A model generated the notes under the pieces. The model searched no databases. It was not told where the DNA came from and worked only from the letters and a program-made list of their open reading frames with translations. Positions 2,023-28,950 of a DNA stretch of 29,594 nt are shown here, one piece after another. The translations under genes were made by a program, and so were the position numbers. How positions within the stretch are numbered: position 1 is the stretch's first letter; every line of letters starts with the position of its first letter. The stretch is from a virus (Duplodnaviria; Caudoviricetes): positions 1-29,594 of the IMG/VR virus record IMGVR_UViG_3300031991_000114. One strand, given 5' to 3'.

Positions 2023-3333
2023 ATGGTGAAATTCAGCGCCGGCCAGGAGGCGGCTCTTCGCCTCCTGGAAGGATCGCGGCGTTATACGTGCCTTGCAGGC
2101 GGTACGAGATCCGGTAAGACGTTCCTCATCGTCCGCGCAATCGTCGCGCGCGCGCTCGAGGCCGACGGATCGCGCCATGCCATCCTACGGTTCCATGCCA
2201 ATGCCGCGCGTGCCTCGATCGCGCTCGACACCTTGCCACGTGTCATGCAGCTCTGCTTTCCGCAAGCGGTCCTCAAGGAGCACCGCCAGGACGCCTATTT
2301 CTCCCTACCGAACGGGTCGCGCATCTGGATCGGAGGCCTCGACGACAAGGACCGGGTGGAAAAAATCCTGGGGCTCGAATATGCGAGCATCTTCCTCAAC
2401 GAGGCCTCGCAAATACCATACTCGTCGGCCCTGGTCGCCTTCACGCGGTTGGCCCAAGTCGTGCCGCCGATCGACCAGAAGGCCTTCGTGGATCTCAACC
2501 CGGTCGGCAAGACGCACTGGACCCATGTACTCTTCCGCGACAAGCGCGACCCGGTGTCGCGGCAGCTGTTGAAGGATCCCGAGAGCTACGAGCTCGCGTT
2601 CCTGAATCCGACCGACAACGCAGTGAACCTGTCGAGGGAATTCCTGCGCAGCCTGGAGAACCTGCCGGAAAAGCAACGCAAGCGCTTCTACGAAGGCACC
2701 TACGTAGAGGAAGTCGATGGCGCGTTGTGGAGCTACGACGTCATCGACAAGGCTCGATGTGCGCCGGAGGATATTCCCGAGGAACGGCGCGATGCGGTTG
2801 TGGTCGGGCTCGATCCATCCGGCGCCGCGGGCCGGGATGATCTCGCTGCCGACGAGATCGGGATCATCGTGGCGGCACGGGGGACCGATGGCGATTGCTA
2901 CATCCTCTCGGATCGTTCCTGCCGCGAGGCGCCTGCGGTATGGGGCAGGCGAGCGGTTGTCGCGTTCCACGAGTTTCGGGCCGATTGCATTGTCGCCGAG
3001 AGCAATTTCGGCGGCGAGATGGTCCGCGCGACGATCGAGGCGGCCGACCGCGACGTCCCGGTGCGCCTCGTGACGGCGAGCCGCGGCAAGGCGGTACGCG
3101 CCGAGCCGATCTCGGTGCGCTATGCGCAAGGCCGGGTTCATCATGTCGGTAGGCTGGCCAAGCTCGAGGACCAGCTTTGCGCGTTTTCCGCCGGCGGCTA
3201 TGCGGGAGCCGGCAGTCCCGACCATGCGGATGCCGCCATCTGGGCCTTGACCTACCTGTTCGGGGCGGACGACGGGACCGGCATCATCGAATTCTACCGG
3301 CGCGCGGCGCAGGCGCTCGGCAAGGCCCCATAG
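2023..3333 (+). CDS. terL: Terminase large subunit (436 aa)
   Basis: Walker A GGTRSGKT, Walker B region GLEYASIFLNEA, motif III DLNP, nuclease VVGLDPS and SPDHADA. Start chosen at ATG 2023 rather than 1888. Confidence 0.95.
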   Translation: MVKFSAGQEAALRLLEGSRRYTCLAGGTRSGKTFLIVRAIVARALEADGSRHAILRFHANAARASIALDTLPRVMQLCFPQAVLKEHRQDAYFSLPNGSRIWIGGLDDKDRVEKILGLEYASIFLNEASQIPYSSALVAFTRLAQVVPPIDQKAFVDLNPVGKTHWTHVLFRDKRDPVSRQLLKDPESYELAFLNPTDNAVNLSREFLRSLENLPEKQRKRFYEGTYVEEVDGALWSYDVIDKARCAPEDIPEERRDAVVVGLDPSGAAGRDDLAADEIGIIVAARGTDGDCYILSDRSCREAPAVWGRRAVVAFHEFRADCIVAESNFGGEMVRATIEAADRDVPVRLVTASRGKAVRAEPISVRYAQGRVHHVGRLAKLEDQLCAFSAGGYAGAGSPDHADAAIWALTYLFGADDGTGIIEFYRRAAQALGKAP

Positions 3334-3399
3334 GCGTTGCCGGGCAGGCTGGCCGAGCCCCGCCCCGACCCCCGATCGTCGAGAAACGAAGGAATCCTT

Positions 3400-4755
3400 A
3401 TGGCCGAGCGTGGCGCGGGGCAGCGAAGCTGGTCGCTGAGCCCTTACGAGGTCAATGTCAGCTTCGCCGCCACAACAAGAGCCGGCGAGACCTCTGGCTG
3501 GTTCGGCCCAGCGGCCCCGATGACACCGCTCGCGCCGCCGGAGATCGCGGGACGCCAATGGGATTTTCCCGCCGGCTATAATCTTTCGACCCTGTCGAGA
3601 CCCTACGAGCCCGTCACCTTCGCGACCTTGCGTGCGCTGGCCGACGGCTACGACCTGCTTCGGCTCGTCATCGAGACGCGCAAGGACCAGGTTGCGAGAC
3701 ATGCGTGGACCATCAACCTACGGGACGGAGCCCTTTCGTCGCCATCCGATCGGGACCGGATCGCGGTGGCGAAGCGATTCCTGGCTCGGCCGGATGGGGT
3801 CCATGACTTTGCCGACTGGCTGAGGATCCTGCTCGAGGAGGTCTTCGTGACCGACGCCCCGGCTCTCTACATGAGCCGCGATCGCAGCGGTCGCCTCAGA
3901 GCCTTGATGCCGCTCGACGGCGCGACGATCAAGCCGATCCTCGACTCGTGGGGGCGTACACCGCAACCCTATGTGGAAAACGGAGCGATCACCTATCCCC
4001 CCGCATATCAGCAGATTCTGAAAGGCTATCCCGCGATCGACTACTCGATCCACGACTTGATCTACCGACCGCGCAACCTGCGCGTCAACCGGGCCTATGG
4101 CTTCAGCCCGGTGGAGCAAATCGTCACGACCGTCAACATCGCGTTGCGGCGGCAGATGTTCCTGCTCGACTATTTCACCGAGGGCAACATTCCGGACAGC
4201 CTCATCGGCGTACCCGAGAGCTGGACACCGGATCAGATCGCGTCGTACCAGAAGTACTGGGACGCCTACTTCGATGGAGACCAAGGTCGTCGTCGACGGG
4301 CGAAGTTCGTTCCCGGTGGAGTCGCGAAGACATTCGTCCAGACCTCCGAGCCCGAGCTCAAGGGCGCTTTCGACGAGTGGCTGGCGCGCATCGTCTGCTT
4401 CGCTCTTTCGATCTCGCCGCAAGCGCTTACCCAAACCATGAATCGAGCGACCGCGGAGACGCAGAAGGATCTCTCGGAGGAGGAGGGGCTGGCTCCGATC
4501 CTCGGTTGGGTGAAGCGCCTCGTCGACGACATCCTCGCCACCGAGCTCGACGGAACCGATCTCGAATTCTGCTGGTGCACCAACAACCAGATCGATCCTG
4601 CCATCCAAGAGCAGATCCTGTCGAGCTACACATCGAGCGGCATCCTCACCATCAACGAGGCGCGTGCCACCCTCGGCAGAGCGCCGTTTCCCGAGCCGTC
4701 CGCCGACCGGCCGATGACCCTCGCGACCTCGGGCTACGTTGCGCTCCCCGAATAG
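3400..4755 (+). CDS. Phage portal protein (451 aa)
   Basis: Follows terL; portal-type motifs LMPLDGATIKP, YGFSPVEQI, YFTEGNIP, GILTINEARATLG; AAGGA RBS before ATG 3400. Confidence 0.93.
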   Translation: MAERGAGQRSWSLSPYEVNVSFAATTRAGETSGWFGPAAPMTPLAPPEIAGRQWDFPAGYNLSTLSRPYEPVTFATLRALADGYDLLRLVIETRKDQVARHAWTINLRDGALSSPSDRDRIAVAKRFLARPDGVHDFADWLRILLEEVFVTDAPALYMSRDRSGRLRALMPLDGATIKPILDSWGRTPQPYVENGAITYPPAYQQILKGYPAIDYSIHDLIYRPRNLRVNRAYGFSPVEQIVTTVNIALRRQMFLLDYFTEGNIPDSLIGVPESWTPDQIASYQKYWDAYFDGDQGRRRRAKFVPGGVAKTFVQTSEPELKGAFDEWLARIVCFALSISPQALTQTMNRATAETQKDLSEEEGLAPILGWVKRLVDDILATELDGTDLEFCWCTNNQIDPAIQEQILSSYTSSGILTINEARATLGRAPFPEPSADRPMTLATSGYVALPE

Positions 4756-5009
4756 CGATGCCGTCGGACTCGTAACCGCGATGGTCGGCCTCCTCCACGG
4801 CCACCTCACCGTGTTACCGGCAGTGCTCCGAGACGGTCACCGAGGCGACTGGAGCATCGCGACGAGCGGCAGCGAGACCGTCCACCGTGACGCAATGACC
4901 TAGCAATGCGCAAGGAGCGGTTCGTCGCGAGATGGACGCTTTCCGGATACGCCGACGTCCCCGAAGCACCAGCGGCCGCCGATGGGCGGTCTCCTTGTTG
5001 GAGATACGG

Positions 5010-6134
5010 ATGGCTGACCTGTCCCTGTTCATCCCGATCACCAAGGTCGACGCGACGCAGCACCTCGTCTATGGTGTCGCAACCGCGGAGGTCGAGGACC
5101 GAGCCGGCGAAATATGCGACTACGCCTCGACAAAACAACACTACGAACGGTGGTCGGACGAGATTGCGCAATCCACCGGCGGCAAGTCACTCGGAAACCT
5201 GCGCGCGATGCACGGCCCTGTCGCGGCGGGCAAGGTGACGGCGATCACCTTCAACGACGAGGCGAGGCAGATCGAGATCTGCGCCAAGGTCGTGGACGAA
5301 GCCGAGTGGATCAAGGTCACCGAGGGGGTCTACACCGGATTTTCGCAGGGCGGCACCTACGAGCGGAGGTGGACCGACGAGGCAGGCCTGACACGCTACA
5401 CCGCAGTACCGAGCGAAATCTCCCTCGTCGATCTGCCGTGCCTACCGCAGGCTCGCTTCGAGATGATCAAAGCGGACGGAACCCACGAGCTGCGTGGCTT
5501 CGAGCCGCGTTCGAGCATTGTCGCGAGGCTCGACGGCCTCGCGCAGAACCTGGGTTGGCTCGCGAGCCTTTCGCCAGACGATCTACACGACCTGCCGGGG
5601 CTCGCGGCAGAGATCACCGAGCTCCACGCTCTATCCGCCCGGCTGGCGACCGTCTTGGGCTCGGTCGAGTCCTCGGGGAAAGACCCGCACGAACACCACC
5701 CGCGGGGCTCACGGAGGGCCGCCGCGAGCAACGATCAAGACCGCACGGCTCCAAGCGCCAGGGCCCTACGCCATGTCGATCAGGGCTATGAGGACCGGGA
5801 GGACCGCCGAATCCGCGTGCGCAAAGACCTCGACACGCCGGTCCGGCTCGACGCTCTGCCGCCCGCCACCAAGGCGATGCAGTGGGATGTCGAGAAACGC
5901 TTCGACACCCTGGGGGCCTTGCTCGCGGATATCCTCCAGCGCGTCAAGAACATCGAGCAGCAGCCTCTACCGCTCCCGCTTTCCGGACGGCACCAGGTTG
6001 TCGCAAAGCACGAGGACGGCGATGCCGACCGACATCATTCGGCGGTAATCGATACCTTGCTCGCGGATCCCGAGGCGCTTTCGATCCTCGCCATAAGGCT
6101 CGCGCAACGAAACGGCCGCGCACCGCTCCGATAG
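5010..6134 (+). CDS. Prohead protease with C-terminal scaffold-like region (374 aa)
   Basis: Between portal and capsid; VYGVATAE-DRAGE, NLRAMH, YTGFSQGG, EISLVDLPC motifs; helical C-terminal half; GGAG RBS. Confidence 0.8.
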   Translation: MADLSLFIPITKVDATQHLVYGVATAEVEDRAGEICDYASTKQHYERWSDEIAQSTGGKSLGNLRAMHGPVAAGKVTAITFNDEARQIEICAKVVDEAEWIKVTEGVYTGFSQGGTYERRWTDEAGLTRYTAVPSEISLVDLPCLPQARFEMIKADGTHELRGFEPRSSIVARLDGLAQNLGWLASLSPDDLHDLPGLAAEITELHALSARLATVLGSVESSGKDPHEHHPRGSRRAAASNDQDRTAPSARALRHVDQGYEDREDRRIRVRKDLDTPVRLDALPPATKAMQWDVEKRFDTLGALLADILQRVKNIEQQPLPLPLSGRHQVVAKHEDGDADRHHSAVIDTLLADPEALSILAIRLAQRNGRAPLR

Positions 6135-6310: not shown

Positions 6311-7828
6311 ATGACAATCCACACCGATGTTCAGGATATTCTGGACAGGCTGAAGGCCGCGCAGCGGAGGCCCCTCGGCGACCCGAGGTTCAAGGATCTC
6401 GCGCCCCTCGGCAAATCGACATTCGGGCAGAGCTCGAGTGCCACCTCGGGGCTGACGTTCTACGACCTCGAGCTCGGTGCGAAGTTCCTTTATCCGGTGC
6501 TGACGCCCCTGCGGAACATGATTCCACGGGTATCCGGGAAAGGTGGCATCCAGGCAGCCTGGCGGGCAATCACCGCGATCAATACCACAGGCCTGCGATT
6601 TGGTGTCTCGTCCGCCAATCGTGGCGGCGTGCTGGCCCTCGCGACGCAGGACTATACGGCCACATACAAGGGAATCGGTGTCGAGACGAATGTCGATTTC
6701 GAGGCACAATATGCCGGGCAGGAATTCGACGACATTCGCGCGATCGGTGCCAAGGCCGGCCTTGAGGCATTGATGCTGGGCGAGGAAGCCATGATCCTCG
6801 GAGGCAATACCTCCATTGCGCTCGGGACCACTCCGACCCCCACGGCCGCTGCCTTGACCACAGGCGGCACGCTCGCGGCTCAAACCTGGTCGGTCATCTG
6901 TGCCGCGCTGACCCTCGATGGCTTGATGAACGGCAGCATCACGTCGGGCGTGCAAGGCTCGATTACCCGCACGAACGCCGATGGCACGAGCGACACCTTC
7001 GGTGGCGGTGTCGCTCGAAAGAGCGCGAACGGGACGGTTGCGACGACCGGCACGACTGGTTCGATCACCGCGACCGTCGTTCCTGTATCTGGAGCCGTGG
7101 GCTACGCATGGTTCTGGGGTGCCGCCGGCGCCGAGGTGGTCGGTGCAATAACCACAATCAACTCTGTCGTGATCACGGCAACCGCGACCGGGACCCAAAC
7201 GGCCGCGTCGCTCGGATCCAATGACAACTCAATCAATACCCTGGCCTTCGACGGGCTCGTGTATCAAGCGGTCAAAGCGGGCTCGGGCGCCTATGTGCTG
7301 TCGATGGCCACCGGGGTAGCGGGGACCGGCACGCCGTTGTCAGCCGACGGATCCGGAGGCGTCGTCGAGATCGACCTCGTCCTGCGATCGATGTGGGACA
7401 ATTACCGGTTGTCGCCGGACACGATGTGGGTAAGCTCGCAAGAAGCGATGAACATCTCGAAAAAGATCATGATGGGGTCGACCAACTCGGCGCAGCGTTT
7501 CGTGTTCGAAGCGGCCCAGGACATGGTCGGCGGTGGAATCATGGTCCGCACTTATCTGAACCGTTACTCGATGCAGGGCGGCAGCGCGGTCGACGTCAGG
7601 GTACATCCGAACATGCCCGCCGGTACGATCCTGTTCACGACCAAGACGCTGCCCTATCCACTTGCCGGGGTCGGTAATGTCGTCCAAATCCGCACCAGGC
7701 AGGATTACTATCAGATCGAATGGCCGCTTCGGACGCGGAAATACGAGTATGGCGTCTATGCCGACGAGGTTTTGCAGAATTACTTTCCCCCCTCGATGGC
7801 ATTGATTACCAATATCGGGAATGGGTGA
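6311..7828 (+). CDS. Major capsid protein with large internal insertion (505 aa)
   Basis: Position after protease; AGGAG RBS; HK97-fold-like segments (TPLRNMIPRV, EEAMILGGN...FDGL, VHPNMPAGTILF). Confidence 0.85.
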   Translation: MTIHTDVQDILDRLKAAQRRPLGDPRFKDLAPLGKSTFGQSSSATSGLTFYDLELGAKFLYPVLTPLRNMIPRVSGKGGIQAAWRAITAINTTGLRFGVSSANRGGVLALATQDYTATYKGIGVETNVDFEAQYAGQEFDDIRAIGAKAGLEALMLGEEAMILGGNTSIALGTTPTPTAAALTTGGTLAAQTWSVICAALTLDGLMNGSITSGVQGSITRTNADGTSDTFGGGVARKSANGTVATTGTTGSITATVVPVSGAVGYAWFWGAAGAEVVGAITTINSVVITATATGTQTAASLGSNDNSINTLAFDGLVYQAVKAGSGAYVLSMATGVAGTGTPLSADGSGGVVEIDLVLRSMWDNYRLSPDTMWVSSQEAMNISKKIMMGSTNSAQRFVFEAAQDMVGGGIMVRTYLNRYSMQGGSAVDVRVHPNMPAGTILFTTKTLPYPLAGVGNVVQIRTRQDYYQIEWPLRTRKYEYGVYADEVLQNYFPPSMALITNIGNG

Positions 7829-7912
7829 CCTCGGCAATGGAGCCGTGCGCTCGTTCGTGGTGTCGCTATACCGGCAATGCCCGAAGCCGAAGGGAACACG
7901 AGGAGGGGGGTG

Positions 7913-8239
7913 ATGAAGCTTCGTGTTCCGTGCGGGTGCAGGTCTGTCTCCTACGATGGCGATCAGCTATCGATCGACAGCGACGGCTCGATCGAGGCGG
8001 ACGAGACAGCCGCAGGCATACTTGTCGCCCACGGCTTCGTGGCGGTGCCGTCATCGATCACGGTCACGGATCACGACGCCGCCGGCAGGGACGAGGTCGC
8101 CACGCTCGATCGGCGAGGACTCTTTTCCCTTCTGAGGTCGCGAGGTGTGTCGGTGTCATTGCCGATCACCAACGCGGAGTTGCGTGCAGCTGCACGCAAG
8201 GCACTCGCAGGGTCAGCGTCATCGATTCCGCTGCGATGA
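7913..8239 (+). CDS. Small post-capsid protein with C-terminal helix-extension-helix-like tail (108 aa)
   Basis: Strong GAGGAGG RBS before ATG 7913; C-terminus LDRRGLFSLLRSRGV...NAELRAAARKAL resembles HeH/Rho-N modules. Confidence 0.7.
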   Translation: MKLRVPCGCRSVSYDGDQLSIDSDGSIEADETAAGILVAHGFVAVPSSITVTDHDAAGRDEVATLDRRGLFSLLRSRGVSVSLPITNAELRAAARKALAGSASSIPLR

Positions 8240-8387: not shown

Positions 8388-9209
8388 ATGGGATCACCTC
8401 ACGATCTTGCGCGCCTTCCGGATCTCGCGACTTGGCTCGGCGTCTCCGCGGGAGACGATGATGCCGTGCTCGAGAGCCTCATCGCTCGAACCAGCCGCGC
8501 GATACTCGGCTATCTCGTTCGGCCGTCGGTCCTTCCGGACGTGTATAGTGACATCTTCGATGGCGGGAACCAAACATCAATCTGCTTGCGACAATGGCCC
8601 GTGACCTCGGTTGTGTCTTGTACCATGAATGGTGTGCCGGTTCCGGCGGCGATCGGCTCGGGTGGAAGCATGGCCATGGGCTATGCCGTCGATACGGCCG
8701 AGCCCTATCCACCGGGTCGGATGCAGAGGATTTCGCTACGTGGCGGCACGTTTGCGTCCGGCGTGCAAAATATCGCGATCACCTATCATGCGGGCTATCA
8801 GATCGCCAATGAAGCCGGGACCGTACCGCTCGCGGCACCCTTCTCGGTGACTGTACGAGCGCCGCACGGCAACTTTGCGAGCGATGCCGCGGTCACTGAC
8901 ACGAGCGGAAGCCCATGGATCAAGGTCGCGAGCAATCCGGGGCCGGGGCAATATGCCTGCGACGACGGAGTGTATACATTCCCAGCGGCAGCCGCCGGCA
9001 CATCCGTGCAGATTTCCTACGGCTATGTGCCCGGCGAGCTTGCTCGGTGCTGCATCGAATGGGCGGCTGATCAGTACCAATATCGAACGCGGATCGGCCA
9101 GCATGCGAAATCGTTGGGCGGCCAGGAAAGCATATCGTTTATCGTGAAGGACATACCAGATTTTGTCCGGACCGTCCTGCAACCCTACCGACGGGTGGTC
9201 ACGCCGTGA
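8388..9209 (+). CDS. Head-tail connector/adaptor with inserted beta domain (273 aa)
   Basis: gp6-like N-terminus (DLARLPDLATWL...DDAVLESLI), ITYHAGY, C-terminal VRTVLQPYRR; AGGA RBS. Confidence 0.8.
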   Translation: MGSPHDLARLPDLATWLGVSAGDDDAVLESLIARTSRAILGYLVRPSVLPDVYSDIFDGGNQTSICLRQWPVTSVVSCTMNGVPVPAAIGSGGSMAMGYAVDTAEPYPPGRMQRISLRGGTFASGVQNIAITYHAGYQIANEAGTVPLAAPFSVTVRAPHGNFASDAAVTDTSGSPWIKVASNPGPGQYACDDGVYTFPAAAAGTSVQISYGYVPGELARCCIEWAADQYQYRTRIGQHAKSLGGQESISFIVKDIPDFVRTVLQPYRRVVTP

Positions 9210-9640
9210 CGGCGACCAGGGGGGCGCTTCGAGACCCTCTTGCCCGGCGCTTTTCCGTGCTGCGCGATGCGTTGCTCGGGCGGATCGAGGGTCGGCGCGT
9301 CGGGGCGGGCATACCGGAAGCTCTGATCGATATATCCGAGGCGGTGCGTTCGGCGGTTTCCGGCGTCGATGCCGTGGCGGATACAGCGGAGCCGGGCGAG
9401 GACCTGCCGGCCTCCTTGCGCACTCTCGGAACGAAACGAGCTGCCCGAGAGCTCGCGGGCATGAAGACTGGGAGCATCGGCGCGAACGCAGCGGGCAAAC
9501 GGCAGAGACCAACATCGACCCATCGCGACAAATCGACGATCGGCGAGAGCTTTCCCCGCACGGGGGCGAGGGGCACCGGTGTCGTTACATTCGAGTCCGA
9601 TCTCAAGCACGCTATCCTTGTTGCGCTCGGGCGAAGGTAA
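9206..9640 (+). CDS. Hypothetical neck-region protein, possibly degenerate (144 aa)
   Basis: GTGA overlap with the adaptor stop; occupies the neck/tail-completion slot but has no motif I recognise. Confidence 0.45.
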   Translation: MTATRGALRDPLARRFSVLRDALLGRIEGRRVGAGIPEALIDISEAVRSAVSGVDAVADTAEPGEDLPASLRTLGTKRAARELAGMKTGSIGANAAGKRQRPTSTHRDKSTIGESFPRTGARGTGVVTFESDLKHAILVALGRR

Positions 9641-9717
9641 GCCTGGCTCGCGCCTAATATTGGATGCAGTCGATTTCGGTGCGAGAATTGGCGATCGGAT
9701 GAACAGGAGCAGGGTCC

Positions 9718-10164
9718 ATGCCGGCCACGACGCGCGAGAATGCGATTGCCGCTCTCATGTCGATTGTCGCGGGCGCCTATGCCTGGAAGACCGGGCCGGT
9801 CCGTCGGCTCAAGTTGTGGAATGATGTTTCGCACGCGGCGCGCCCAGCGTGCTATCTCTTCGAAGGTGGTGAGGATTCGTACGCGTGGACCGAGAGCGCT
9901 CGACCAAGGCGGGTTATCGAGGTCAGGCTGTTCGTCTATCTGAGCGTGAGAGATGCCGGCGCTATCGGCGCTGTGCGGCTCAACGAAGTCATGGATGCTC
10001 TGGACGCAGCATTCCTACCAAGCGGATCGGACGCGCTTCTCGGCCGGAACTCACTCGCTGGGGCTGTCTACCATTGCCGGATCGAAGGGAAGGTCTTGAA
10101 GGATCCAGGTGACCTCGATGGGGACGCCATGCTCGTTGTACCGGTCAAGATTGTCCTCCCCTGA
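9718..10164 (+). CDS. Probable tail terminator/completion protein (148 aa)
   Basis: Size and position before the tail tube; TRENAIAAL...RPACYL...VVPVKI pattern; GGAG RBS. Confidence 0.7.
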   Translation: MPATTRENAIAALMSIVAGAYAWKTGPVRRLKLWNDVSHAARPACYLFEGGEDSYAWTESARPRRVIEVRLFVYLSVRDAGAIGAVRLNEVMDALDAAFLPSGSDALLGRNSLAGAVYHCRIEGKVLKDPGDLDGDAMLVVPVKIVLP

Positions 10165-10509: not shown

Positions 10510-11247
10510 ATGTATAGCTTCGGAACGGGCATCTTGCTCGGAACCCGTACTGATATACCTAACGCGACACCGGTCAATTTCGGGTTGGTCCAGGAAGTCA
10601 CGATCGAGGAGACCGCGACCATCAAGGAGCTGCACGGACAGTTTCAACGTGCGATCGTCGAGGCGCGAGGTACGATCAAGACGACCGGTAAGGCGAAAGT
10701 CGCGCGAATCTCGGGCCTTGCCTTCGCTCATCTTTTCTACGGCGTGACCCCCACGGCGGGTCAGCTCGCGACTGCCTTCGCGGAGGCCGGCACGATACCG
10801 GCATCCTCGCCCTATACGGTGACGGTGCTGAACGCGGGAGGGTTCGTCGACGACAATGGTGCCGTGTACCTTTCCACCGGCCTGCCGCTGACCAAGGTCG
10901 CGTCGGCGCCCGGCGCTGGACAATATTCCGTAGCGTCGGGCGCCTATTCGTTCAACGCCGCGGATGCCGGGAAGGCTGTGCTCGTCAGCTATACCTACTC
11001 GATGAACGGGTCAGGTCACAAGTTCACGGTGACCAATCAGCTCCTCGGAACCACACCGACTTTCCAAGCACAGTTCTACACGACTTTTCAGAACCAGGCG
11101 GTATCATTGAAGCTGAACAATTGTACGTCGACCAAGCTGAGCTTCAAGACCAAGCTCGAGGACTTCGTCATGCCGGAGTTCGATTTCTCATGCTATGCCG
11201 ATGCGGCCGGGAACGTGATGACCTGGTCGTTCGCGGAGGTTTCCTGA
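10510..11247 (+). CDS. Major tail tube protein (245 aa)
   Basis: Precedes chaperone and tape measure genes; beta-rich with FGLVQEVTI, KELHGQFQ, EDFVMPEFDFSC; purine-rich RBS. Confidence 0.8.
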   Translation: MYSFGTGILLGTRTDIPNATPVNFGLVQEVTIEETATIKELHGQFQRAIVEARGTIKTTGKAKVARISGLAFAHLFYGVTPTAGQLATAFAEAGTIPASSPYTVTVLNAGGFVDDNGAVYLSTGLPLTKVASAPGAGQYSVASGAYSFNAADAGKAVLVSYTYSMNGSGHKFTVTNQLLGTTPTFQAQFYTTFQNQAVSLKLNNCTSTKLSFKTKLEDFVMPEFDFSCYADAAGNVMTWSFAEVS

Positions 11248-11248
11248 G

Positions 11249-11602
11249 ATGCGGCTTCACGCGGAAACAATCAAGCTCGGGTTGCACGAATGGGTCGTCC
11301 GGCCGTTGACACTTCGCCAGGTGCAGGAAATCGAACCCATTCTCATGGAGAGTGCCGGCGTTACCAAGGGCAACGTCGGCGCAGCGTTGGCGATCGTCGC
11401 CATTGCGCTTCGACGTGACGATCCCGAGGCGGCGGGGGAGCTCTGGGATATCGAGGCGACAGCACCCGAGATTGGTGCCGCTATGGCCACGGTGTTGCGG
11501 CTGGGCGGGTTCATCCCGTCGAATCCTTCCGGAGATCCGACATCGGGGGAAGACATGGCGGGCGCGACGATCGCGATCGATGTGCCCGCCTCGACTTCGT
11601 AA
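11249..11602 (+). CDS. Tail assembly chaperone (lambda G-like, 117 aa)
   Basis: Between tube and tape measure; GGAGG RBS; contains slippery GGGGGAA at 11545-11551. Confidence 0.8.
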   Translation: MRLHAETIKLGLHEWVVRPLTLRQVQEIEPILMESAGVTKGNVGAALAIVAIALRRDDPEAAGELWDIEATAPEIGAAMATVLRLGGFIPSNPSGDPTSGEDMAGATIAIDVPASTS

Positions 11603-20668: not shown

Positions 20669-21585
20669 TCGACGTCAGTTCCACGCTGCTCCTTCGTCCA
20701 GGGACAACGGCACAGCATTCGTCATTCACCGGCGGGGTCGCCGAGGTCACGGTCGATACGGACAAGAAAACCGTCGTCGTGCATGACGGGGCCACGGCGG
20801 GGGGGAGCCCGCTGGCGACTGCGGCCGGGCCGAACGATAATATGTCGAGGCTCGGGGTGAATACAACGTCGGACGCGACGAACAAGCTCGCGGTGCGCAG
20901 CAATGCCGCGCTCTTGACGGCGCTCTATGCCGCCGAGGGCGGCAATGGCGATATGCAGGTCAAGGTCAATCGCGAGGCGACCGCCGACACAGGATCATTC
21001 CTATTCCAGAAGGCGTTCTCTGGACGCGCCGAAATCGGCAACATCGCGAGCGACGATTTCAGCTTCAAGGTGTCGCCGGACGGCTCGACCTTCTACGAGA
21101 GTATCAAGATCGTGGGGTCCTCCGGGCTCGTCGAGCTGCCGATCGGTAAGTTGAAGTTCCCAGCGACGCAAAACCCATCATCCGATGTCAATACGCTCGA
21201 CGACTATGAGGAAGGCACTTGGACGCCAGACCTACTCTTCGGTGGTGGCTCGACAGGACTGACCTATGCCTCGCGGTCGGGGACCTATACAAAGATCGGG
21301 AATCGGCTCTGGGGAAGCCTAGCCCTCGTACTCTCTGCGAAGGGGACATCGACCGGTGCGGTGACGATCGGCGGGCTGCCCTACACGCAGGCTTTTGGGA
21401 CCCAGGGCTCTGCGTCTTGTGCATACTACACTGGCATGGCGTCGGTCGGGGTCGGGATATTCGGCCGGATATTCGGGACGACCATTACGTTGACGGGATT
21501 CGGATCGACGGCAGCGGCAGCGGCTACGGACGCGAATTTCGCGAATTCGAGCGAGCTTCATATGACGTTCAATGGCTGGGTCTAG
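20665..21585 (+). CDS. Mosaic tail fibre (306 aa)
   Basis: Mtd_N-like N-terminus (GTTAQHSSFTG...VDTDKKTVVVHDG); middle like DUF2793-family fibres (LGVNTTSDATNKLAV...FSGRAEIG...DDFSFKVSPDG); C-terminal DDYEEGTWTP...YTKIGN tip. Confidence 0.85.
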   Translation: MIDVSSTLLLRPGTTAQHSSFTGGVAEVTVDTDKKTVVVHDGATAGGSPLATAAGPNDNMSRLGVNTTSDATNKLAVRSNAALLTALYAAEGGNGDMQVKVNREATADTGSFLFQKAFSGRAEIGNIASDDFSFKVSPDGSTFYESIKIVGSSGLVELPIGKLKFPATQNPSSDVNTLDDYEEGTWTPDLLFGGGSTGLTYASRSGTYTKIGNRLWGSLALVLSAKGTSTGAVTIGGLPYTQAFGTQGSASCAYYTGMASVGVGIFGRIFGTTITLTGFGSTAAAAATDANFANSSELHMTFNGWV

Positions 21586-21807: not shown

Positions 21808-23460
21808 ATGAGAAAAATCGCCCATGTACTGATCGCGTGCGCCGCGGTGATCGGTTTCGCATTTCACGCTGTCGCGGCAGAGTCTGTAAACATGGTCCCG
21901 CCGGCGAGCGGAAAACGCAACTCGGTGACCTACAACGGCCGCACGTATTCCGCCACCCCCGGTATGGCGATCCCGGTTCCGGATTTCGACGCCCCGATCC
22001 TCGAGGCAAACGGCTGGTCGATCGCGACCTCGATCTCCACCTCGACAGTTCCGGCCGAATCCCCCTTCGCCCCGCTTCTGCGGGTCGCCCGAAAGCCCGC
22101 GCCGAACGGGCCGACACTCAACGCGCCTCTGATCGGGGCGCGGCCCTGGGCGGCGACAACGGCCTTTGCGACGGGCGCGGTAGTCTCGAAAGGCGGGCGT
22201 GCCTATATCGCAACGACGGGCGGCACGTCCGGCGCGACCTGGGCGAACACGCGTGGCATCGGGCAGACCGATGCCTCGGTCACCTGGGACTATATCGGCC
22301 CACAGACCGCGCCGCAGGTTGTCGGGATCGATGCCGCGACGCACGACGCGGCACTGACCAACATCCTGACCATGGAGTCGATCTCGACCCTGCCCGCCGG
22401 GCAAGGTCCGGTCCGCTGGCGCGGCGGACCCTTGACGGAGACAACGCTCGATGGCTACTGGGGTCCTACAAGCGTCAGCGTGCCGTCAGGCGGGGTTGTG
22501 ACGACGACGAGAAACCAGGCTGTCGGCGGGATGGAATTCATCTGCGAATGCACGAAGGTCGAGTTCGCGGTCAGGCAGGGCATACGGCAATACAATTTCA
22601 TTGTTGATGGCCGAAATATCGATATGGATGCGGTGACTTCAGGTGGCGCGAGCCCACACTATTTCACGCTGGATTTCACCAATACACAACCAGTGAACGA
22701 TAGCGGTGCAATTACGGGCCGTGGGCGTCGCCATATTTGGGTCGAGTTCTCGGTCAGCGCGACATTCTTGCAAATCGCGACCGAGCCGACAGGGACGTTC
22801 TCCTACCCGCCTTATGCAGAGGAATGGTCGCTCGCTCTTATCGCTGATAGTCAGGGCGCGGGCGTGATCGTGGCTGGCGGGAGCTTCACAAAGAACTCGA
22901 TGGCGTGGGGGCAACAGCTTGTCAAAATGCTCGACGTCCCGGATATCTGCAATTCGTCGATCGGCCAGACCGGGCTCGTAAATGCCGGCGCGTTCTGGAA
23001 CTACGGTGCACATGCGCTCACCGACCTTGCGCTGTGCCACGCAAATCGGCCGATCAAGTACATCGTCATACAGGGATCGACGAACGACATCGGGCAGTCG
23101 TTCAGCGCGGTCACGGCGAACGCGGTATCACTTGTATTGTCGCTGCGCGCGGCATATCCAACGGTGCCGATCTTCGTCACGGGGGTAATCGGGTCGTCGT
23201 TATACGATCAGCCCGCCCAAACAGACGTCGAGGTTGCCGTATTCGCGGGTCTCGCAGGCATGACTAACGTCTACACCATCCCGATCTCGACGGCCTCGCC
23301 AAAGTGGTTTATTGGTAAAGGTGAGGAGGGAACCCCAACCGGGGGAGGGAACACGGATTTGGATATTCTGGGCGACCAAATACATCTATCAGGACAAGGG
23401 GCGGCCTACATGGCGATGCGTGTCGCGCAGGCTATCCTCGCCATTGCTGGAGCGAACTAA
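21808..23460 (+). CDS. Signal-peptide-bearing modular SGNH/GDSL-like hydrolase (550 aa)
   Basis: Sec-type leader MRKIAHVLIACAAVIGFAFHAVAA; CBM5/12-like WAATTAF...VTWDYIG; SGNH blocks IADS, GQTG, QGSTND, DQIH. Confidence 0.82.
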   Translation: MRKIAHVLIACAAVIGFAFHAVAAESVNMVPPASGKRNSVTYNGRTYSATPGMAIPVPDFDAPILEANGWSIATSISTSTVPAESPFAPLLRVARKPAPNGPTLNAPLIGARPWAATTAFATGAVVSKGGRAYIATTGGTSGATWANTRGIGQTDASVTWDYIGPQTAPQVVGIDAATHDAALTNILTMESISTLPAGQGPVRWRGGPLTETTLDGYWGPTSVSVPSGGVVTTTRNQAVGGMEFICECTKVEFAVRQGIRQYNFIVDGRNIDMDAVTSGGASPHYFTLDFTNTQPVNDSGAITGRGRRHIWVEFSVSATFLQIATEPTGTFSYPPYAEEWSLALIADSQGAGVIVAGGSFTKNSMAWGQQLVKMLDVPDICNSSIGQTGLVNAGAFWNYGAHALTDLALCHANRPIKYIVIQGSTNDIGQSFSAVTANAVSLVLSLRAAYPTVPIFVTGVIGSSLYDQPAQTDVEVAVFAGLAGMTNVYTIPISTASPKWFIGKGEEGTPTGGGNTDLDILGDQIHLSGQGAAYMAMRVAQAILAIAGAN

Positions 23461-23768
23461 TGGCAAAAGCGCACTATCTTGCCGCAGCAATCGCTGCGGC
23501 AAGTGTGGGAAGTGCCCACGCCGAAGGCCCAGCGCTCGTGGGACAGGTCCCGAACAGCCAGATCGCGATTACGCCGAGCGATTCGACCGATATCGTGCCC
23601 CGCTGCAACGGCCTCTATGTCGGCTCCGGCGGCGATCTGCGCCTCTCCCTGTCTGGTGGCGGAACTGCCACATGGGTTGGGGTGCTAGCTGGAGCCCAGT
23701 ATTGGCTTCAGGTTACGAGAGTCCTGGCGACCGGCACCACGGCGTCGAACCTGATCTGCCTACGGTGA
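23460..23768 (+). CDS. Homolog of the RcGTA head-spike base protein (Rcc01079 family) with signal peptide (102 aa)
   Basis: AITPSD...LYVGSGGDL...VTRVLATGTTA family pattern; leader ends in SAHA; TAATG coupling to the upstream gene. Confidence 0.8.
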   Translation: MAKAHYLAAAIAAASVGSAHAEGPALVGQVPNSQIAITPSDSTDIVPRCNGLYVGSGGDLRLSLSGGGTATWVGVLAGAQYWLQVTRVLATGTTASNLICLR

Positions 23769-23775
23769 CTCGGCC

Positions 23776-26085
23776 ATGAAAAAAGCCCTTCTCGCAATCG
23801 TTGCTGTGAGCGGCACTCTCGCCGCTCTAGCGGTATGCGCGGCGAACGCCGGGATCATTCGATTCGGCTCGTCTCAGCGCGCTGCCGCGGGTGCGCCAAT
23901 CACCGCCGACTTCTTCGTCGCGACGAACGGGAGCGACTCGAACGCATGTACGACGACGGCCGCGCCGTGCCTTACTCCGGTAGGCGCGCGGAACAAGCTC
24001 CGCACCGCCATGGCGCTGCCAGGGGGCAAGGACCGGAGCTGGGCGGTCATGCTCCGCGGCGGGCGGTACGATCTCACGACGCGTCTCGTGCTCGATCAGG
24101 CCAATGACAGCGTGAACGATCCCCATGCGGTGACATGGCGGGAGTATCCCGGCGAGAGCGTCACGATCAGCGGCGGCTTTCCCGTCACGGGGTGGGTCGT
24201 CGGCGGGGACGGCCGCTGGCGCGTGACCCTCCCGGAAGTACAGGCGGGCACGCTATATTTCTCGGATATTTGGGTCAACGGAATCCATAGCTCGGTGCCG
24301 ATCCGTCCCAGGCTCAAGACGGAAGTGCCATTCACGATGGTCGCGATGGCTTCGAGCACGGGCGACCCGTGCACCGATGTCCCGGTCAATATCGTGAATG
24401 ATTTGTGGGGCGGCTGCAACGGCGCCGCGGGCGGCGGGTCTAATCGATTTACGTTCACCGGATCGCAGCTACTATCCACGTGGACAAACCTGACAGACAT
24501 CAGGATTAGATTTAACGACAACTTCTCCTATACGAGCCAATATCGCTTGTCCGGAGTTGACGGCGGAACGCATATCGCGACGATGCAGGCGCACAGCTTC
24601 ACCGGCATCTCCGGTGAGGCTCTACGCCGGGATTGGCGTAGGGAGAACGTTTTCGAGGACTTGACTGATGCTGGCGAGCACTACCTGAACCGCACTACTG
24701 GCGAGCTGACCTACATCCCGCGCCCCGGCGAGACACCGGCAAACAGCACAGTCATCGCGCCATACCTGCCTCGCCTGCTCTCGATCTCGAACAACGGCAA
24801 TGCCTCACGCGCGCAGAACATCACCTTCTCTGGGCTCACGTTCGCCTATACACTTGACCACTACGCGAGGGACGGTTGGGTTGGTGTAGGGCCTAACGCG
24901 GAATACCTCGACATGGGATCGATCTATGTCCAGGCCGCGCGGAATATCAAGTTCCTGAAAAGCACGCTCGAGCACATCGGGGGGACCGCAATTCGTATTG
25001 GTCGCGGCGCCCAGGCTGTCACCCTGGACGGGGTTCTAGCGCGCGACCTTGGCGGTGGGATGGTCACAACGACGCACGACAGCAGGTGCCCTATCGATCG
25101 AAGCGCGTACTGGCCCGCCTACGATACGGTCATGCAGTGCCCGACTGGCGCCCCTGACCAGGTTGCCTTCGACGAAGATGCCAATGGGCACATCATCAAG
25201 AACTTCATCGTCACGGACTACGGCAAGAAGCGGACGAGCGTGTCCGCCGTGCATGTCGGGCACGGCTCCAATAATCTCGTGTCGCATGGCGAGATTTATG
25301 GCGGCCCGTCGATGGCCGTGCACATCGGCGGGACCGATAGCTGCATTAATTTCGGGGAGAATATAAACAACACAACAGAGTATTTGTCCATCCACGATCA
25401 GGGGTATGGTGGAATCGCGTGGTCTTGGGACTATGCGGGGCTCTATCACGTAGGGCCGAACGAGGGGGGCCGCGTCCACCACAACTACATACGCAACATA
25501 AAGGGCTCGACCACGGCGCAGAGCACGGGGGCGCGCGGCCTATACGCCGACAACTGCGCGACGGGCATAACCTTCGACAACAACGTGGTCTATGACACGG
25601 GGGAGGCCAATTTCAACTTCAATTTCGGGTCAAAGCTTGTCCTGGAGAACAACATCTTTGTGCTGGGCGGAAACCAGCAAATTCGCGGCGGCAACATGTC
25701 GGGTGGAGCGCCGAGCGATCCGTCCTACACGTTCACCAAGAACGTGGTCTACAGCAACACGACGGATACCGCGATCTATTGCTCCCATGGCGTCTTGTTT
25801 TGCGCGACAAGCACGCCCGAGATTGTAGAGAACAACGGCGTCTACTATCGCACGCCTGGCACATTCACCATGGCGACGCGGGATCAGACCATCGCTGATT
25901 GGATTACGACGGGCTCGCCGCTCGGGCCGCAGAGCCAGAACACGAGCTGGAACGTCGATCCGCTCTTGATAGACCCGACGAACCCGCGACTCGGGTTGCA
26001 AGCCGGCTCGCCGGCCTTCGCCAAGGGATTCGTGCAGATCGACCTCTCTACGATCGGCCCGATCGGCGCGGTCGGGGCCCCGTAA
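23776..26085 (+). CDS. Signal-peptide-bearing right-handed beta-helix protein (GH141/pectin-lyase-like putative depolymerase, 769 aa)
   Basis: Leader MKKALLAIVAV...AANA; FFVATNGSD, VMLRGGRY, YPGESVTISGG, ENVFEDLTDAGEHY, GLYADN...ITFDNNVVY. Confidence 0.85.
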   Translation: MKKALLAIVAVSGTLAALAVCAANAGIIRFGSSQRAAAGAPITADFFVATNGSDSNACTTTAAPCLTPVGARNKLRTAMALPGGKDRSWAVMLRGGRYDLTTRLVLDQANDSVNDPHAVTWREYPGESVTISGGFPVTGWVVGGDGRWRVTLPEVQAGTLYFSDIWVNGIHSSVPIRPRLKTEVPFTMVAMASSTGDPCTDVPVNIVNDLWGGCNGAAGGGSNRFTFTGSQLLSTWTNLTDIRIRFNDNFSYTSQYRLSGVDGGTHIATMQAHSFTGISGEALRRDWRRENVFEDLTDAGEHYLNRTTGELTYIPRPGETPANSTVIAPYLPRLLSISNNGNASRAQNITFSGLTFAYTLDHYARDGWVGVGPNAEYLDMGSIYVQAARNIKFLKSTLEHIGGTAIRIGRGAQAVTLDGVLARDLGGGMVTTTHDSRCPIDRSAYWPAYDTVMQCPTGAPDQVAFDEDANGHIIKNFIVTDYGKKRTSVSAVHVGHGSNNLVSHGEIYGGPSMAVHIGGTDSCINFGENINNTTEYLSIHDQGYGGIAWSWDYAGLYHVGPNEGGRVHHNYIRNIKGSTTAQSTGARGLYADNCATGITFDNNVVYDTGEANFNFNFGSKLVLENNIFVLGGNQQIRGGNMSGGAPSDPSYTFTKNVVYSNTTDTAIYCSHGVLFCATSTPEIVENNGVYYRTPGTFTMATRDQTIADWITTGSPLGPQSQNTSWNVDPLLIDPTNPRLGLQAGSPAFAKGFVQIDLSTIGPIGAVGAP

Positions 26086-26658: not shown

Positions 26659-27288
26659 ATGGAGTTTGTCGGCGAGGCACGGAAGTGCACTGACCTCGGA
26701 TACGAGGCGGCAGCGGCGCGGATCGGCTGCGAGATGGCGGTGTTGCGGGCCGTGGTTGCGATCGAGACGGGTGGTCGGGGGTTCGATGCCAAGGGGCGCC
26801 CGAAGGCGCTCTTCGAGCCCCATGTCTTCTTCCGCCTGTCGCGTGGCGCGAAGCGACAGGCTGCGATCAAGGCGGGACTCGCCTATCAAAAATGGGGGAC
26901 GCGACCCTACCCGAAGGATTCCTATGCGCGAATCGCGGCGGCCTGCGAGATCGACGAGGAGCGCGCGCTCCAGGCGACATCGTGGGGGCTCCCGCAGTTG
27001 CTCGGCCGGAATCACAGTGCGGCCGGCTACGAGACCGCCGTGGGCATGGTCGAGGCATTCCGGGAGAGCGAGGATATACAGCTTGCCGCGATGGCGCGGT
27101 TCATCGTTGCGAACAGGCTCGACGCCGCGCTCGAACGCAAGGACTGGGTGGCTTTTGCCAAAGGATACAATGGGCCGAGCTACGCGACGCACGGCTATCA
27201 CAGGAAGCTGGCCGAGGCGTACGAGCACTTTCGTGCGAAGCAGCCGCAGCCGGTGGCAGAATCGCTGACTCCAGAGGTCAAGAATTGA
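26659..27288 (+). CDS. Endolysin, N-acetylmuramidase DUF3380 family (209 aa)
   Basis: VVAIETGG, LFEPHVF, TSWGLPQLLGRNH, FAKGYNGP motifs. Confidence 0.92.
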   Translation: MEFVGEARKCTDLGYEAAAARIGCEMAVLRAVVAIETGGRGFDAKGRPKALFEPHVFFRLSRGAKRQAAIKAGLAYQKWGTRPYPKDSYARIAAACEIDEERALQATSWGLPQLLGRNHSAAGYETAVGMVEAFRESEDIQLAAMARFIVANRLDAALERKDWVAFAKGYNGPSYATHGYHRKLAEAYEHFRAKQPQPVAESLTPEVKN

Positions 27289-27306
27289 GATCAGGCGAAA
27301 CGCATC

Positions 27307-27501
27307 GTGAAGATGTCGAGACGGTCCGGGGCAGTGGCGTTATCCGCAGCGGTAGCCGCGCCGGTCGCCATGAGTGCGGCAGGCTCGGCTCGGTCCGGCT
27401 CAGCCATATCGACTGCTATCGTGATCGTCCTCGTGCTCGTCGTGTCTGTTGCCGCAATAGCCGCGTGGCGCGGTTTTCGTCGCGTCAAATCGTTCAAGTA
27501 G
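27307..27501 (+). CDS. Hydrophobic peptide in frame with the endolysin (split C-terminal anchor or small membrane protein)
   Basis: Hydrophobic stretch AIVIVLVLVVSVAAIAAW followed by a basic tail; same frame as the endolysin, open from 27289. Confidence 0.5.
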   Translation: MKMSRRSGAVALSAAVAAPVAMSAAGSARSGSAISTAIVIVLVLVVSVAAIAAWRGFRRVKSFK

Positions 27502-27510
27502 GAGTCGTCG

Positions 27511-27690
27511 ATGTCGCTCGTGTTCTCGAGCAGGGATTTGCTGTGGTTGGATTTTTCGCTTGCCGTGCTGCTCGGTTTCGGCTTCGGGACCTGCTTCCTG
27601 GAGCTCGTCGATTCCGCCTTGTTCTGGTTGGATCGGGTCGCGTTGCGGCACGCCGCGAAATGTATCGGAAAGCGGAGGATCGACCAATGA
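27511..27690 (+). CDS. Small membrane protein (59 aa, not in the ORF track)
   Basis: AGGAG RBS; MSLVFSSRDLLWLDFSLAVLLGFGFGTCFLELV...; ATGA overlap with the next gene. Confidence 0.6.
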   Translation: MSLVFSSRDLLWLDFSLAVLLGFGFGTCFLELVDSALFWLDRVALRHAAKCIGKRRIDQ

Positions 27691-27878
27691 GCAGCATAGA
27701 CGAGAGCTCCATGGTTGCTTTCGCGTTCGTGCTTCCGCCATTGTATGGCGCAGTGGGCGCGTGGTTGTCGCATCTAGGAACCACCGAGAGCGCGTGGGAC
27801 GAGTTCTTCAGTCCGTGGCCGTTTGCGTCGATTGGTGCCTTCATAGCCGCGGTGTGCGTGCTCCACCTCGGCGCCTGA
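27687..27878 (+). CDS. Small two-helix membrane protein (63 aa)
   Basis: GGAGG RBS; two hydrophobic segments (VAFAFVLPPLYGAVGAWL; FASIGAFIAAVCVL). Confidence 0.6.
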   Translation: MSSIDESSMVAFAFVLPPLYGAVGAWLSHLGTTESAWDEFFSPWPFASIGAFIAAVCVLHLGA

Positions 27879-28012
27879 GAGAAGAGCCGGCGATTGGGAC
27901 GTTCCATCGACTTCCATGTGGTCTGTGGCTGGACCGGTCGCGGCGAGCGACCGACGATGAGGCCCGCAATGAATTTCATCGCATCGGAGACTGGCGTCGA
28001 GGAGGTCGAGAC

Positions 28013-28432
28013 ATGACAGCGCCCAACACATCGATTCAAGTCAGTGAAGTTCTCCTTCTGATCCACCCCTACGCATCGGCGCTTTTTTCGATGATCTTGA
28101 CGGTCGTGACGCCGATGATCGCCGGCAGGATCTACCAATTGTTCGGAGTGAAGTTCACGGATGCGCAATGGGCCGTGGTGCATTCCGCGGCCCTCGCTGC
28201 GGCCGGAAAGTTCTGGGCCGGCGCGGATGCTTCGATCGCGAAGGCGAGGATCGATGTCGGATCGGCGGGCATCGCAGCGGCCGCACAAGCCGCGATCGAC
28301 GCGATTCCGGTGGTAGCCAGGACGATCGGCCTCGATCCGGAAGCCATGGCGAGCCTCATCGTGAGCAAGATCGGCTTGCTGCAAAGTGGTGCGGCGGCGC
28401 CGGCTGACGTGGCGGACGAGGGGCCGGCATGA
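28013..28432 (+). CDS. Putative holin-like membrane protein (139 aa)
   Basis: GAGGAGG RBS; N-terminal hydrophobic helix plus amphipathic helical C-terminus; lies in the lysis region. Confidence 0.65.
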   Translation: MTAPNTSIQVSEVLLLIHPYASALFSMILTVVTPMIAGRIYQLFGVKFTDAQWAVVHSAALAAAGKFWAGADASIAKARIDVGSAGIAAAAQAAIDAIPVVARTIGLDPEAMASLIVSKIGLLQSGAAAPADVADEGPA

Positions 28433-28524
28433 GCGATGGTCTCGGGCAGGAGGCGGCGCCGCCGGCGTAATTTTCGGGTGTGCTTGCGTCGATGATCGGA
28501 AAGGCGCGTGGGAAGGTGCGTGCG

Positions 28525-28794
28525 ATGATTGCAACGGACGGTAGCTCCTGGACCATGCTGGTTGCCGGGAGTCTCGGGGCTGTGTTCGGGGTGGTAGGTA
28601 CGGTCCTTGCCGCCCTCATAAACCGCCAGCCTCCGATGGCGGCGTTGGTGGATGCTCGTATTCGGGTGTTGATCGAGAGCTACGAAAGCCGCATCAGCGA
28701 ACTGCAGGACGAGGTCGTGAGGCTCGAGGCCAAGGTGGATGCGTTGTCGAAGGCTCTGCAGCAAGGGAAGCCGTTGCGGTACTTTGGAATGTGA
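28525..28794 (+). CDS. Transmembrane plus coiled-coil protein (lysis accessory candidate, 89 aa)
   Basis: MLVAGSLGAVFGVVGTVLAALI then YESRISELQDEVVRLEAKVDAL; GGAAGG upstream of ATG 28525. Confidence 0.65.
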   Translation: MIATDGSSWTMLVAGSLGAVFGVVGTVLAALINRQPPMAALVDARIRVLIESYESRISELQDEVVRLEAKVDALSKALQQGKPLRYFGM

Positions 28795-28910
28795 CGCGAG
28801 GTGTCGGGACGGTCGACTCGCTCGGGCTGGGAGCCCGAGGCGGATCGGAAAGGTGGGGGATGCCCTCCGCCCGCGATGTGTGGCTTGCGCCACGGCGCGC
28901 GACGCTCGTT

Positions 28911-28950
28911 TGCCCCTGTCCCGCTTCAGCGGGGCAGGGGCATTTTTTTG
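28911..28950 (+). terminator. Rho-independent terminator closing the cluster
   Basis: TGCCCCTGTCCCGCT-TC-AGCGGGGCAGGGGCA hairpin followed by TTTTTTT. Confidence 0.9.

Follow-up and report, generated by a model that had tools for sequence, protein, structure and literature searches.

The DNA analysed here is the whole of IMG/VR virus record IMGVR_UViG_3300031991_000114 (29,594 bases; hereafter, the window), which holds a 27-kb operon running from a terminase gene to lysis genes. We conclude that this element is very probably a domesticated phage particle operon, and that it is not a member of the RcGTA family of gene transfer agents (GTAs). The reading that we favour, to which gene content and comparison give a probability of about 0.5, is that the element has been inherited vertically under purifying selection in the Methylocella/Methylocapsa branch and likely encodes a DNA-damage-inducible, GTA-like particle. 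A damage-inducible GTA best explains three features taken together, namely the strong constraint on head and packaging genes, the lack of self-replication and the lack of a small terminase (TerS). An earlier reading of the window from its letters (hereafter, the sequence-only reading) had suggested an independently domesticated phage-like particle system, and this idea is supported by the distribution of the element, its shared flanks, tree congruence and purifying selection.

Distribution and genomic site

The capsids closest to that of the window came from Methylocella, Methylocapsa, Methylovirgula, Methyloferula and their kin, and in a tree of 160 capsid sequences the window fell within a 65-member Beijerinckiaceae clade (support 0.998). 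In the genus of Methylocapsa polymorpha RX1 (Methylocella/Methylocapsa), a capsid orthologue was present at one locus in 29 of the 44 genomes, a tally that includes unpublished genomes, both positive (G260, G264, G269 and G274) and negative (G282), and that becomes 25 of 39 without them. Across the family, 33 of the 251 sampled Beijerinckiaceae genomes carried the capsid, eight of these at 42-45% identity only. Pieces of the large terminase gene (terL) at 73-82% identity were detected in 11 of the 14 other capsid-negative genomes of the genus (G282 excluded): five lay at contig edges, five reflected internal deletions (G123, G263, G267, G275 and G276) and one was unclear.

The surroundings of the locus were shared as well. 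Downstream of the cluster, hisD-UPF0262 was found in 12 of 28 loci (about 40 kb each), in several of them with a glutathione peroxidase gene (gpx) in between; gpx follows the cluster in G001, G002, G014, G109, G277, G123 and L046, and is also the adjoining housekeeping gene that had been noticed in the window. Upstream, egtBD was present in G200, G089, G052, G177, G198, G086, G311, G268, G281, G123 and G263, and in G123 both egtBD and the right flank remain, with little of the locus left between them. In G002 (Beijerinckiaceae MO3_YZ.1), the closest genome, rnpA-yidC-engB and 20 kb more of housekeeping genes lie upstream and gpx-hisD downstream, with 27.7 kb between gpx and the start of terL compared with 27.1 kb in the window.

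These flanks bear on the alternative of an ordinary temperate prophage, with its arm for integration and replication either beyond the insertion sequence (IS) of the IS630 family at the left end of the window or cut off by it, or of a helper-dependent mobile element. True proviruses and phages with 63-74% identical capsids do exist; the proviruses G315 (capsid 74%) and G316 (70%) have an integrase at their start and recombination genes, and G316 also has a replication initiator and DnaB. In addition, the window begins inside the broken IS630, its own DNA further left lies outside the record, and left flanks vary among sub-lineages. However, the cluster of the sister genome G002 lies between housekeeping genes and shares the gpx flank, the element occurs as one locus per genome with a host-congruent tree, and the five virus records from the capsid clade of the window are 25-35-kb proviral excerpts that lack an integrase. 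No integrase, repressor or replication family was found among the 29 window proteins scanned, in agreement with the sequence-only reading. Of 175 tyrosine-integrase matches in 16 genomes, the 150 listed included none inside the cluster, serine recombinases having had no separate search; the nearest tyrosine integrases among the matches listed were beyond several host genes. We regard this explanation as very improbable. A prophage freshly truncated by the IS, which the sequence-only reading had left standing, does not fit the relatives, in which the cluster lies at a shared locus with housekeeping flanks and no integrase inside; nor did the relatives, with the housekeeping flanks of G002, show integrase or replication genes beyond the cluster or a strain-sporadic presence at variable sites, which it had named as contrary evidence.

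Inheritance and selection

Congruence with the host tree was assessed in 30 of the 36 genomes with locus DNA, six having been dropped for incomplete cover of capsid, portal or tube. The tree of six head and tail proteins had 20 of 27 splits in common with the rpoB tree. Random permutation gave a maximum of 3 (300 permutations) and, as a yardstick, the trees of rpoB protein and rpoB DNA agreed in 22 of 27. In the element tree the window was sister to G002.

Ratios of non-synonymous to synonymous substitution (dN/dS) between the window and G002 were 0.08 for terL, 0.08 for portal, 0.06 for capsid, 0.06 for tube and 0.13-0.24 for the tip genes. All computable values in 12 pairs fell between 0.04 and 0.58, several dS values being saturated and giving no ratio. 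Head and packaging genes were the most constrained, with dN/dS of 0.04-0.13 in most close pairs, and all 12 scored structural genes were kept in 18 of 21 core-clade loci. The checks of synteny, species-tree congruence and dN/dS that had been proposed for this element thus came out in its favour, with shared flanks, 20 of 27 rpoB splits and dN/dS below 1.

Gene content of the window

Called genes between 2023 and 28794 all lie on the plus strand with open frames, as expected from the one-strand head, tail, fibre and lysis set with mostly intact open reading frames (ORFs) that had been described. Their order is terL, portal, protease/scaffold, capsid, adaptor and tail completion, followed by tube, chaperones, tape measure, DUF2460, hub, NlpC/P60, tip, fibre, accessory genes, muramidase and membrane proteins. 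The features, with the matches that identify them, are the following.

1..1190 (right limit approximate), minus strand: IS end and broken transposase of the IS630 family, whose coding part falls into two frames (NF033545, 100.9 bits; PF13358)
1294..1333, plus strand: late promoter copy 1, TTGACT-N18-CAATAT (35.2 bits; repeat family D1)
1560..1599, plus strand: late promoter copy 2 (34.8 bits)
1869..1908, plus strand: late promoter copy 3 (34.9 bits; also found by a sigma-70 scan)
2023..3333, plus strand: large terminase (phrog_979, E 3e-57; PF17289/PF04466)
3400..4755, plus strand: portal, 451 amino acids (aa) (phrog_2662; PF04860)
5010..6134, plus strand: prohead protease with short scaffold part, 374 aa (phrog_9427)
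6311..7828, plus strand: major capsid protein, 505 aa, HK97-type fold with beta-rich insertion (phrog_13692)
7877..8239, plus strand: small head-associated gene, position conserved (homologue in 15 of 28 relatives' loci)
8388..10164, plus strand: head-tail adaptor, gp10-position gene and tail-completion gene (phrog_442, phrog_8150)
10510..11847, plus strand: tail tube and two chaperone-position genes (phrog_8234/2729; order as in Polewnik)
11899..13197, plus strand: tape measure, 432 aa (phrog_2854)
13223..15514, plus strand: megatron TIM-barrel domain fused to a DUF2460-like piece (PF13547, E 2e-97; PF09343; RcGTA megatron 6tba, E 7e-69)
15685..17832, plus strand: DUF2460 distal tail, baseplate hub and NlpC/P60 (PF09343; TIGR02218 over cut-off; TIGR02219 under cut-off)
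18080..20668, plus strand: tail tip, the rest of the megatron (PF13550, PF23666, NF048003)
20665..21585, plus strand: fibre with Mtd-type N-terminus, variable between genomes (PF18454)
21808..26085, plus strand: accessory cargo, comprising SGNH esterase with CBM5/12, spike-base homologue and parallel beta-helix protein
26659..28794, plus strand: lysis module of N-acetylmuramidase and small membrane proteins (PF11860, E 4e-48)
28911..28949, plus strand: intrinsic terminator, 14-bp stem and U7 (z -5.5)
29103..29594, plus strand: glutathione peroxidase gene (gpx), host right flank (PF00255)

The IS630 end lies about 100 bp upstream of promoter copy 1, and the IS is not part of the element. The hairpin at the other end folded better than 200 of 200 shuffles, which confirms the terminator proposed earlier. 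No tRNA was found in the window, and Rfam gave no match there. The stretch of about 570 bp between the beta-helix gene and the lysin gene (26086-26658) holds only a doubtful 82-aa ORF, which has no homologue in relatives. Adaptor (8388-9209) and tube (10510-11247) have a domain of about 65 aa in common (phrog_8234 positions 106-174), and a gene at the adaptor/tail-completion position in one relative matches PF04883 weakly.

Head and DNA packaging

The head of the element is related to that of free-living phages. Its capsid is 63% identical to those of Polewnik and Strzyga, described as Brevundimonas siphoviruses with 62-kb genomes, 58-60-nm heads and tails of about 150 nm (PMC10070969), and a structure model of it (mean predicted local distance difference test score, pLDDT, 69) matched HK97-type phage capsids (best E 1e-5). 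These two phages and the proviruses G315 and G316 follow the same order from terL to tail tip, with identities of 63-74% for the capsid, 48-56% for the portal and 49% for the protease domain (over 187 aa to Polewnik, whose protease-scaffold has 593 aa). Unlike the element, they measure 59-71 kb and carry DNA-metabolism genes, with an integrase in the proviruses. In them the portal, the protease-scaffold and the tape measure reach 1.6-2.2 times the length: the portal has about 450 aa in the element versus 772-966 aa in three related phage contigs, the protease-scaffold about 370 aa versus about 600 aa in phage relatives, and the tape measure about 420 aa in element loci versus 692-966 aa in phage relatives. 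Polewnik also lacks the TIM-barrel domain.

In contrast, the head does not resemble that of RcGTA. No sequence match in the PDB, RcGTA included, was obtained for the portal, for the capsid (as a single sequence and as a 56-sequence profile) or for the tube, although the RcGTA megatron was found in the same library, and the 505-aa capsid gave no match to TIGR01554, the RcGTA-type capsid family. The proposal of a non-RcGTA head is upheld by these results.

The Walker A/B and nuclease motifs of TerL are conserved in relatives, and its best phage match is 48% to Synechococcus phages. No small terminase gene was found ahead of terL in the window. TerS was found by family in none of five genomes and by a profile built from relatives in none of eight clade genomes, compared with both of two control genomes. 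The packaging set, which the sequence-only reading had called near-complete, thus falls short of the usual full complement. The clade could still encode a divergent TerS. According to one account, GTA small terminases are without a DNA-binding domain, none is known for CcGTA, and GTAs are proposed to have come to non-specific packaging through loss of DNA recognition by TerS (PMC11841831).

Methylobacterium and Stellaceae relatives do have a TerS gene before terL. In the Methylobacterium versions (L018:552-1899, L022:17-1300), a NusG-like antiterminator gene and a TerS gene stand directly before terL. Stellaceae-type versions (L041-L049; G005) often carry tandem TerS genes, and G005 has six TerS-profile matches at three loci.

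Tail, accessory and lysis genes

Two tail proteins matched the RcGTA megatron, the TIM barrel with E 7e-69 and the tip protein with E 6e-9. In the element the megatron is divided between two genes in a changed order: the TIM barrel with its DUF2460 piece stands before the DUF2460 gene, and the rest follows NlpC. Together with DUF2460, hub and NlpC/P60, these matches bear out the RcGTA-like tail tip that had been recognized from the letters. An insertion in the tip protein (aa 480-624) resembles the head-spike fibre Rcc01080 (E 4e-12). Scaled to Polewnik (966-aa tape measure, 149 nm), a tail of about 65 nm is predicted.

The suggestion that homologues of RcGTA satellite functions are gathered in this one cluster needs correcting. 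The fibre is of the Mtd_N type, and comparison gave no homology to the RcGTA fibre. Neither the spike-base homologue nor the beta-helix gene had a homologue in any of the 28 relatives' loci, and for this reason we consider both to be local cargo and not conserved satellite functions. Signal-peptide-like N-termini are present, as judged by eye and by hydropathy, in the SGNH esterase, the spike-base homologue and the beta-helix protein alike, which is unusual for virion parts; these three may be secreted polysaccharide-active enzymes. The last gene of the lysis module is conserved, with a homologue in 15 of the 28 relatives' loci. The lysin has been swapped between lineages, being a PF11860 muramidase in the window (26659-27288) and G002, GH108 in most relatives and PF18013 in G003.

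Promoters and regulatory cassette

The three upstream repeats have the form of sigma-70-type promoters with a conserved spacer and conserved downstream bases. A matrix built from 26 copies in 14 other genomes, the window being excluded, scored the three copies at 34.8-35.2 bits and the next-best site in the window at -3.0, which supports the upstream control array of the sequence-only reading. In a genome-wide scan, 10 of 10 matches lay just upstream of terL, in four of five genomes; because the pattern was derived from those terL-upstream sites, its informative part is the absence elsewhere. Conserved bases between -35 and -10 parallel the binding elements described for GafZ, Q and AlpA (PMC11150451). 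Structured RNAs in the promoter spacers were considered and rejected (z -0.5 to +1.1; no Rfam match).

That the operon stands alone without a repressor is correct for the window and fails in the relatives, which carry a dedicated cassette of a divergent cI-like repressor with helix-turn-helix (HTH) and S24 domains, a 113-aa GcrA-like protein and a DUF6362 protein. In many genomes the cassette is next to terL; in G002 (585 kb away), G003, G283 and G257 it has another position. A search of 120 other Rhizobiales for the repressor gave no match at E<=1e-40. It retains Ala-Gly, Ser and Lys in 11 of 11 aligned sequences, which we take to be the self-cleavage residues by analogy with LexA and cI. A second, more distant S24 repressor copy lies away from the element at G001:C1:270592-271149.

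The 113-aa protein is weakly like GcrA (14 of 15 members) and ribbon-helix-helix proteins (5 of 15), with best E values, both under cut-off, of 0.0014 and 0.0024; the possibility that it is a small terminase was rejected (hhalign probability 2.4%). The C-terminus of DUF6362 is sigma-4-like, and the whole protein has a weak full-length likeness to phage Q and AlpA. Atlas placed it at 0.94 to a cluster in which 11% of members carry PF06530. Its model aligned with Q (6jnx_P) at Z 5.9 (root mean square deviation 4.3, 103 aligned) and with AlpA at Z 4.9, scores that lie below the caution level of the tool and that sigma-4 domains exceed (up to Z 6.7), and a Foldseek search of solved and of viral structures returned nothing at E<=0.001. 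On these comparisons a Q/AlpA-like antiterminator function of DUF6362 is a weak lead.

The arrangement was then compared with known switches. As in the RogA/GafYZ/ZBE system, an S24-domain repressor precedes two activator genes and the stretch between -35 and -10 holds a conserved element; the difference is that the repressor of the cassette keeps the cleavage residues, which RogA is described as lacking (PMC9632790, PMC11150451). DUF6456 GafZ was found in none of five clade genomes, the Caulobacter control being positive. BaGTA, an alphaproteobacterial GTA not of the RcGTA type, is described as having a Q-like antiterminator at a separate locus that switches on its capsid operon, a likeness by description, and as being tied to a run-off replication module (bioRxiv 10.1101/2024.11.20.624540); no such module was seen beside the cassette or cluster of the element. 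With RcGTA and CcGTA in general, the element has in common DUF2460, hub, NlpC/P60 and a megatron-type tail tip, vertical inheritance and a cluster without integrase or replication genes; it differs from RcGTA in its portal, capsid and tube, in its split megatron and in having the lysis genes inside the same 27-kb operon. As for RcGTA-type genes elsewhere in the genomes, a second GTA hub gene was not found in any of five, and a TIGR01554 capsid was over cut-off in only 12 of 41.

Other host-linked capsid clades, from Rhodoblastus, Methylobacterium, Xanthobacteraceae and Stellaceae, are interleaved with phage contigs, their deep branches being weakly supported, and the upstream regulators of these versions differ from the cassette. 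The Rhodoblastus-type version (L013, L015, L019, G173 and G148) lies beside meaB; its terL is preceded by a phrog_645 gene and an S24 repressor of another kind, and a host-looking gene is inserted between portal and protease. The Xanthobacteraceae loci L077 and L078 form a tight capsid clade with DUF6362 and cold-shock genes before terL, and are a candidate for another domesticated element.

Losses and alternative functions

Several observations weigh against the GTA-like reading or parts of it. Vertical descent under purifying selection fits a PBSX-like weapon as well as a GTA, and the reading was built from gene content and comparison. One of the 23 well-supported splits conflicts with rpoB (G057 with G007, two truncated elements). 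Left flanks differ in other sub-lineages, which weakens the claim of one site and fits rearrangement. A head of the size of Polewnik's (58 nm, 62 kb) could hold the entire locus, unlike the heads of known GTAs. No cassette homologue was present among the ORFs called in four related phage contigs, and by analogy with BaGTA the cassette may come from another phage. It is kept in 12 of the 15 capsid-negative genomes, where the head is gone, and may therefore serve another purpose. Finally, same-locus internal deletions occurred in G123, G263, G267, G275, G276 and G052, and clusters are truncated in G007, G057, G141 and G257. The repeated internal deletions indicate that the element is dispensable in some lineages and has been lost repeatedly.

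Such losses would be expected of a grounded prophage remnant, decaying slowly and making no useful particles, in which what is conserved stems from an old insertion and from selection that acts on a few parts, the repressor for example. Internal deletions in six lineages or more, four further loci with truncation, structural genes separated by inserted host genes and IS elements, and the persistence of the cassette without a head all agree with it. However, all 12 scored structural genes persist in 18 of 21 core-clade loci across several genera, dN/dS is far below 1 while synonymous sites are near saturation, and the promoter array is intact, as is the terminator in the window. We consider a remnant improbable.

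The same damage-inducible operon might instead specify a PBSX-like or tailocin-like weapon or suicide device, which may pack host DNA and would be kept for competitor killing or for lysis that benefits the population. PBSX-like particles have contractile tails, whereas the tail of the element is non-contractile with an RcGTA-type tip. The locus G267:C15:73377-88000 (L372) lost the head genes between portal and tail completion and keeps tube, tape measure, tip and lysis genes; it fits a killer tail and is a possible natural headless tail. By contrast, the headless G275 and G276 also lost the tube, a pattern of decay and not of a tail-only product. Genomes differ strongly in their fibre, accessory and lysin genes, as a weapon would predict. 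The tightest constraint, however, falls on head and packaging genes (dN/dS of 0.04-0.13 in most close pairs), so that heads and DNA filling matter. The layout of a backward repressor, small regulator, sigma-like positive factor, terminase and late genes over 28-33 kb parallels that described for PBSX, whose terminase-to-lysis operon of about 30 kb likewise lacks replication genes (PMC8347963). PBSX is described there as mitomycin-inducible and bactericidal, packing random 13-kb host DNA, and PBSX-like particles as encoding a small terminase, unlike the element (PMC8347963). The terL of the element has a weak PBSX-family match, and there is no further sequence relationship. All in all, we judge a weapon unlikely, if less easily dismissed than a remnant.

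Proposed mechanism and implications

If the element is a damage-inducible GTA, its cycle might run as follows. RecA-stimulated self-cleavage of the cI-like repressor would release the GcrA-like and DUF6362 genes, and DUF6362, acting like Q or AlpA at the tandem promoters, would carry RNA polymerase through the 27 kb. Heads would then be filled with chromosome, with no sequence preference, by a terminase that lacks a small subunit able to recognise DNA. After lysis of the cell, short-tailed particles with an RcGTA-type tip would deliver the DNA to close kin.

Combining all lines of evidence, we tentatively propose a third independent alphaproteobacterial GTA lineage (after RcGTA and BaGTA), domesticated from a Polewnik-like phage in an ancestor of Methylocella, Methylocapsa and their kin, filling the gap of the missing RcGTA and packing DNA with no small terminase. 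DNA damage would switch it on, a cleavable repressor and a DUF6362 antiterminator serving as the relay. Soil alphaproteobacteria may have domesticated members of this phage family on several further occasions. In the literature linking GTAs, RcGTA, prophages, phage-like particles or mitomycin with Beijerinckiaceae, Methylocella or Methylocapsa, no paper on this element was found, a result that does not extend to the supplements of GTA surveys, where the loci may appear as prophages or small clusters.

How often GTAs arise, and how to recognise those unlike RcGTA, has been described as an open question (PMC11841831). The element is a candidate with a close free-living phage relative, allowing a before-and-after comparison of TerS loss and of shorter portal, scaffold and tape measure. 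It offers a named candidate switch and cultured hosts, namely Methylocapsa polymorpha RX1, M. acidiphila B2 and Methylocella silvestris TVC. Among the IMG/VR 'provirus' records of these hosts, some represent the element and not phages. If DNA is transferred, methanotrophs of soil and peat would have in the element a route of gene exchange, and DUF6362 would gain an assigned function.

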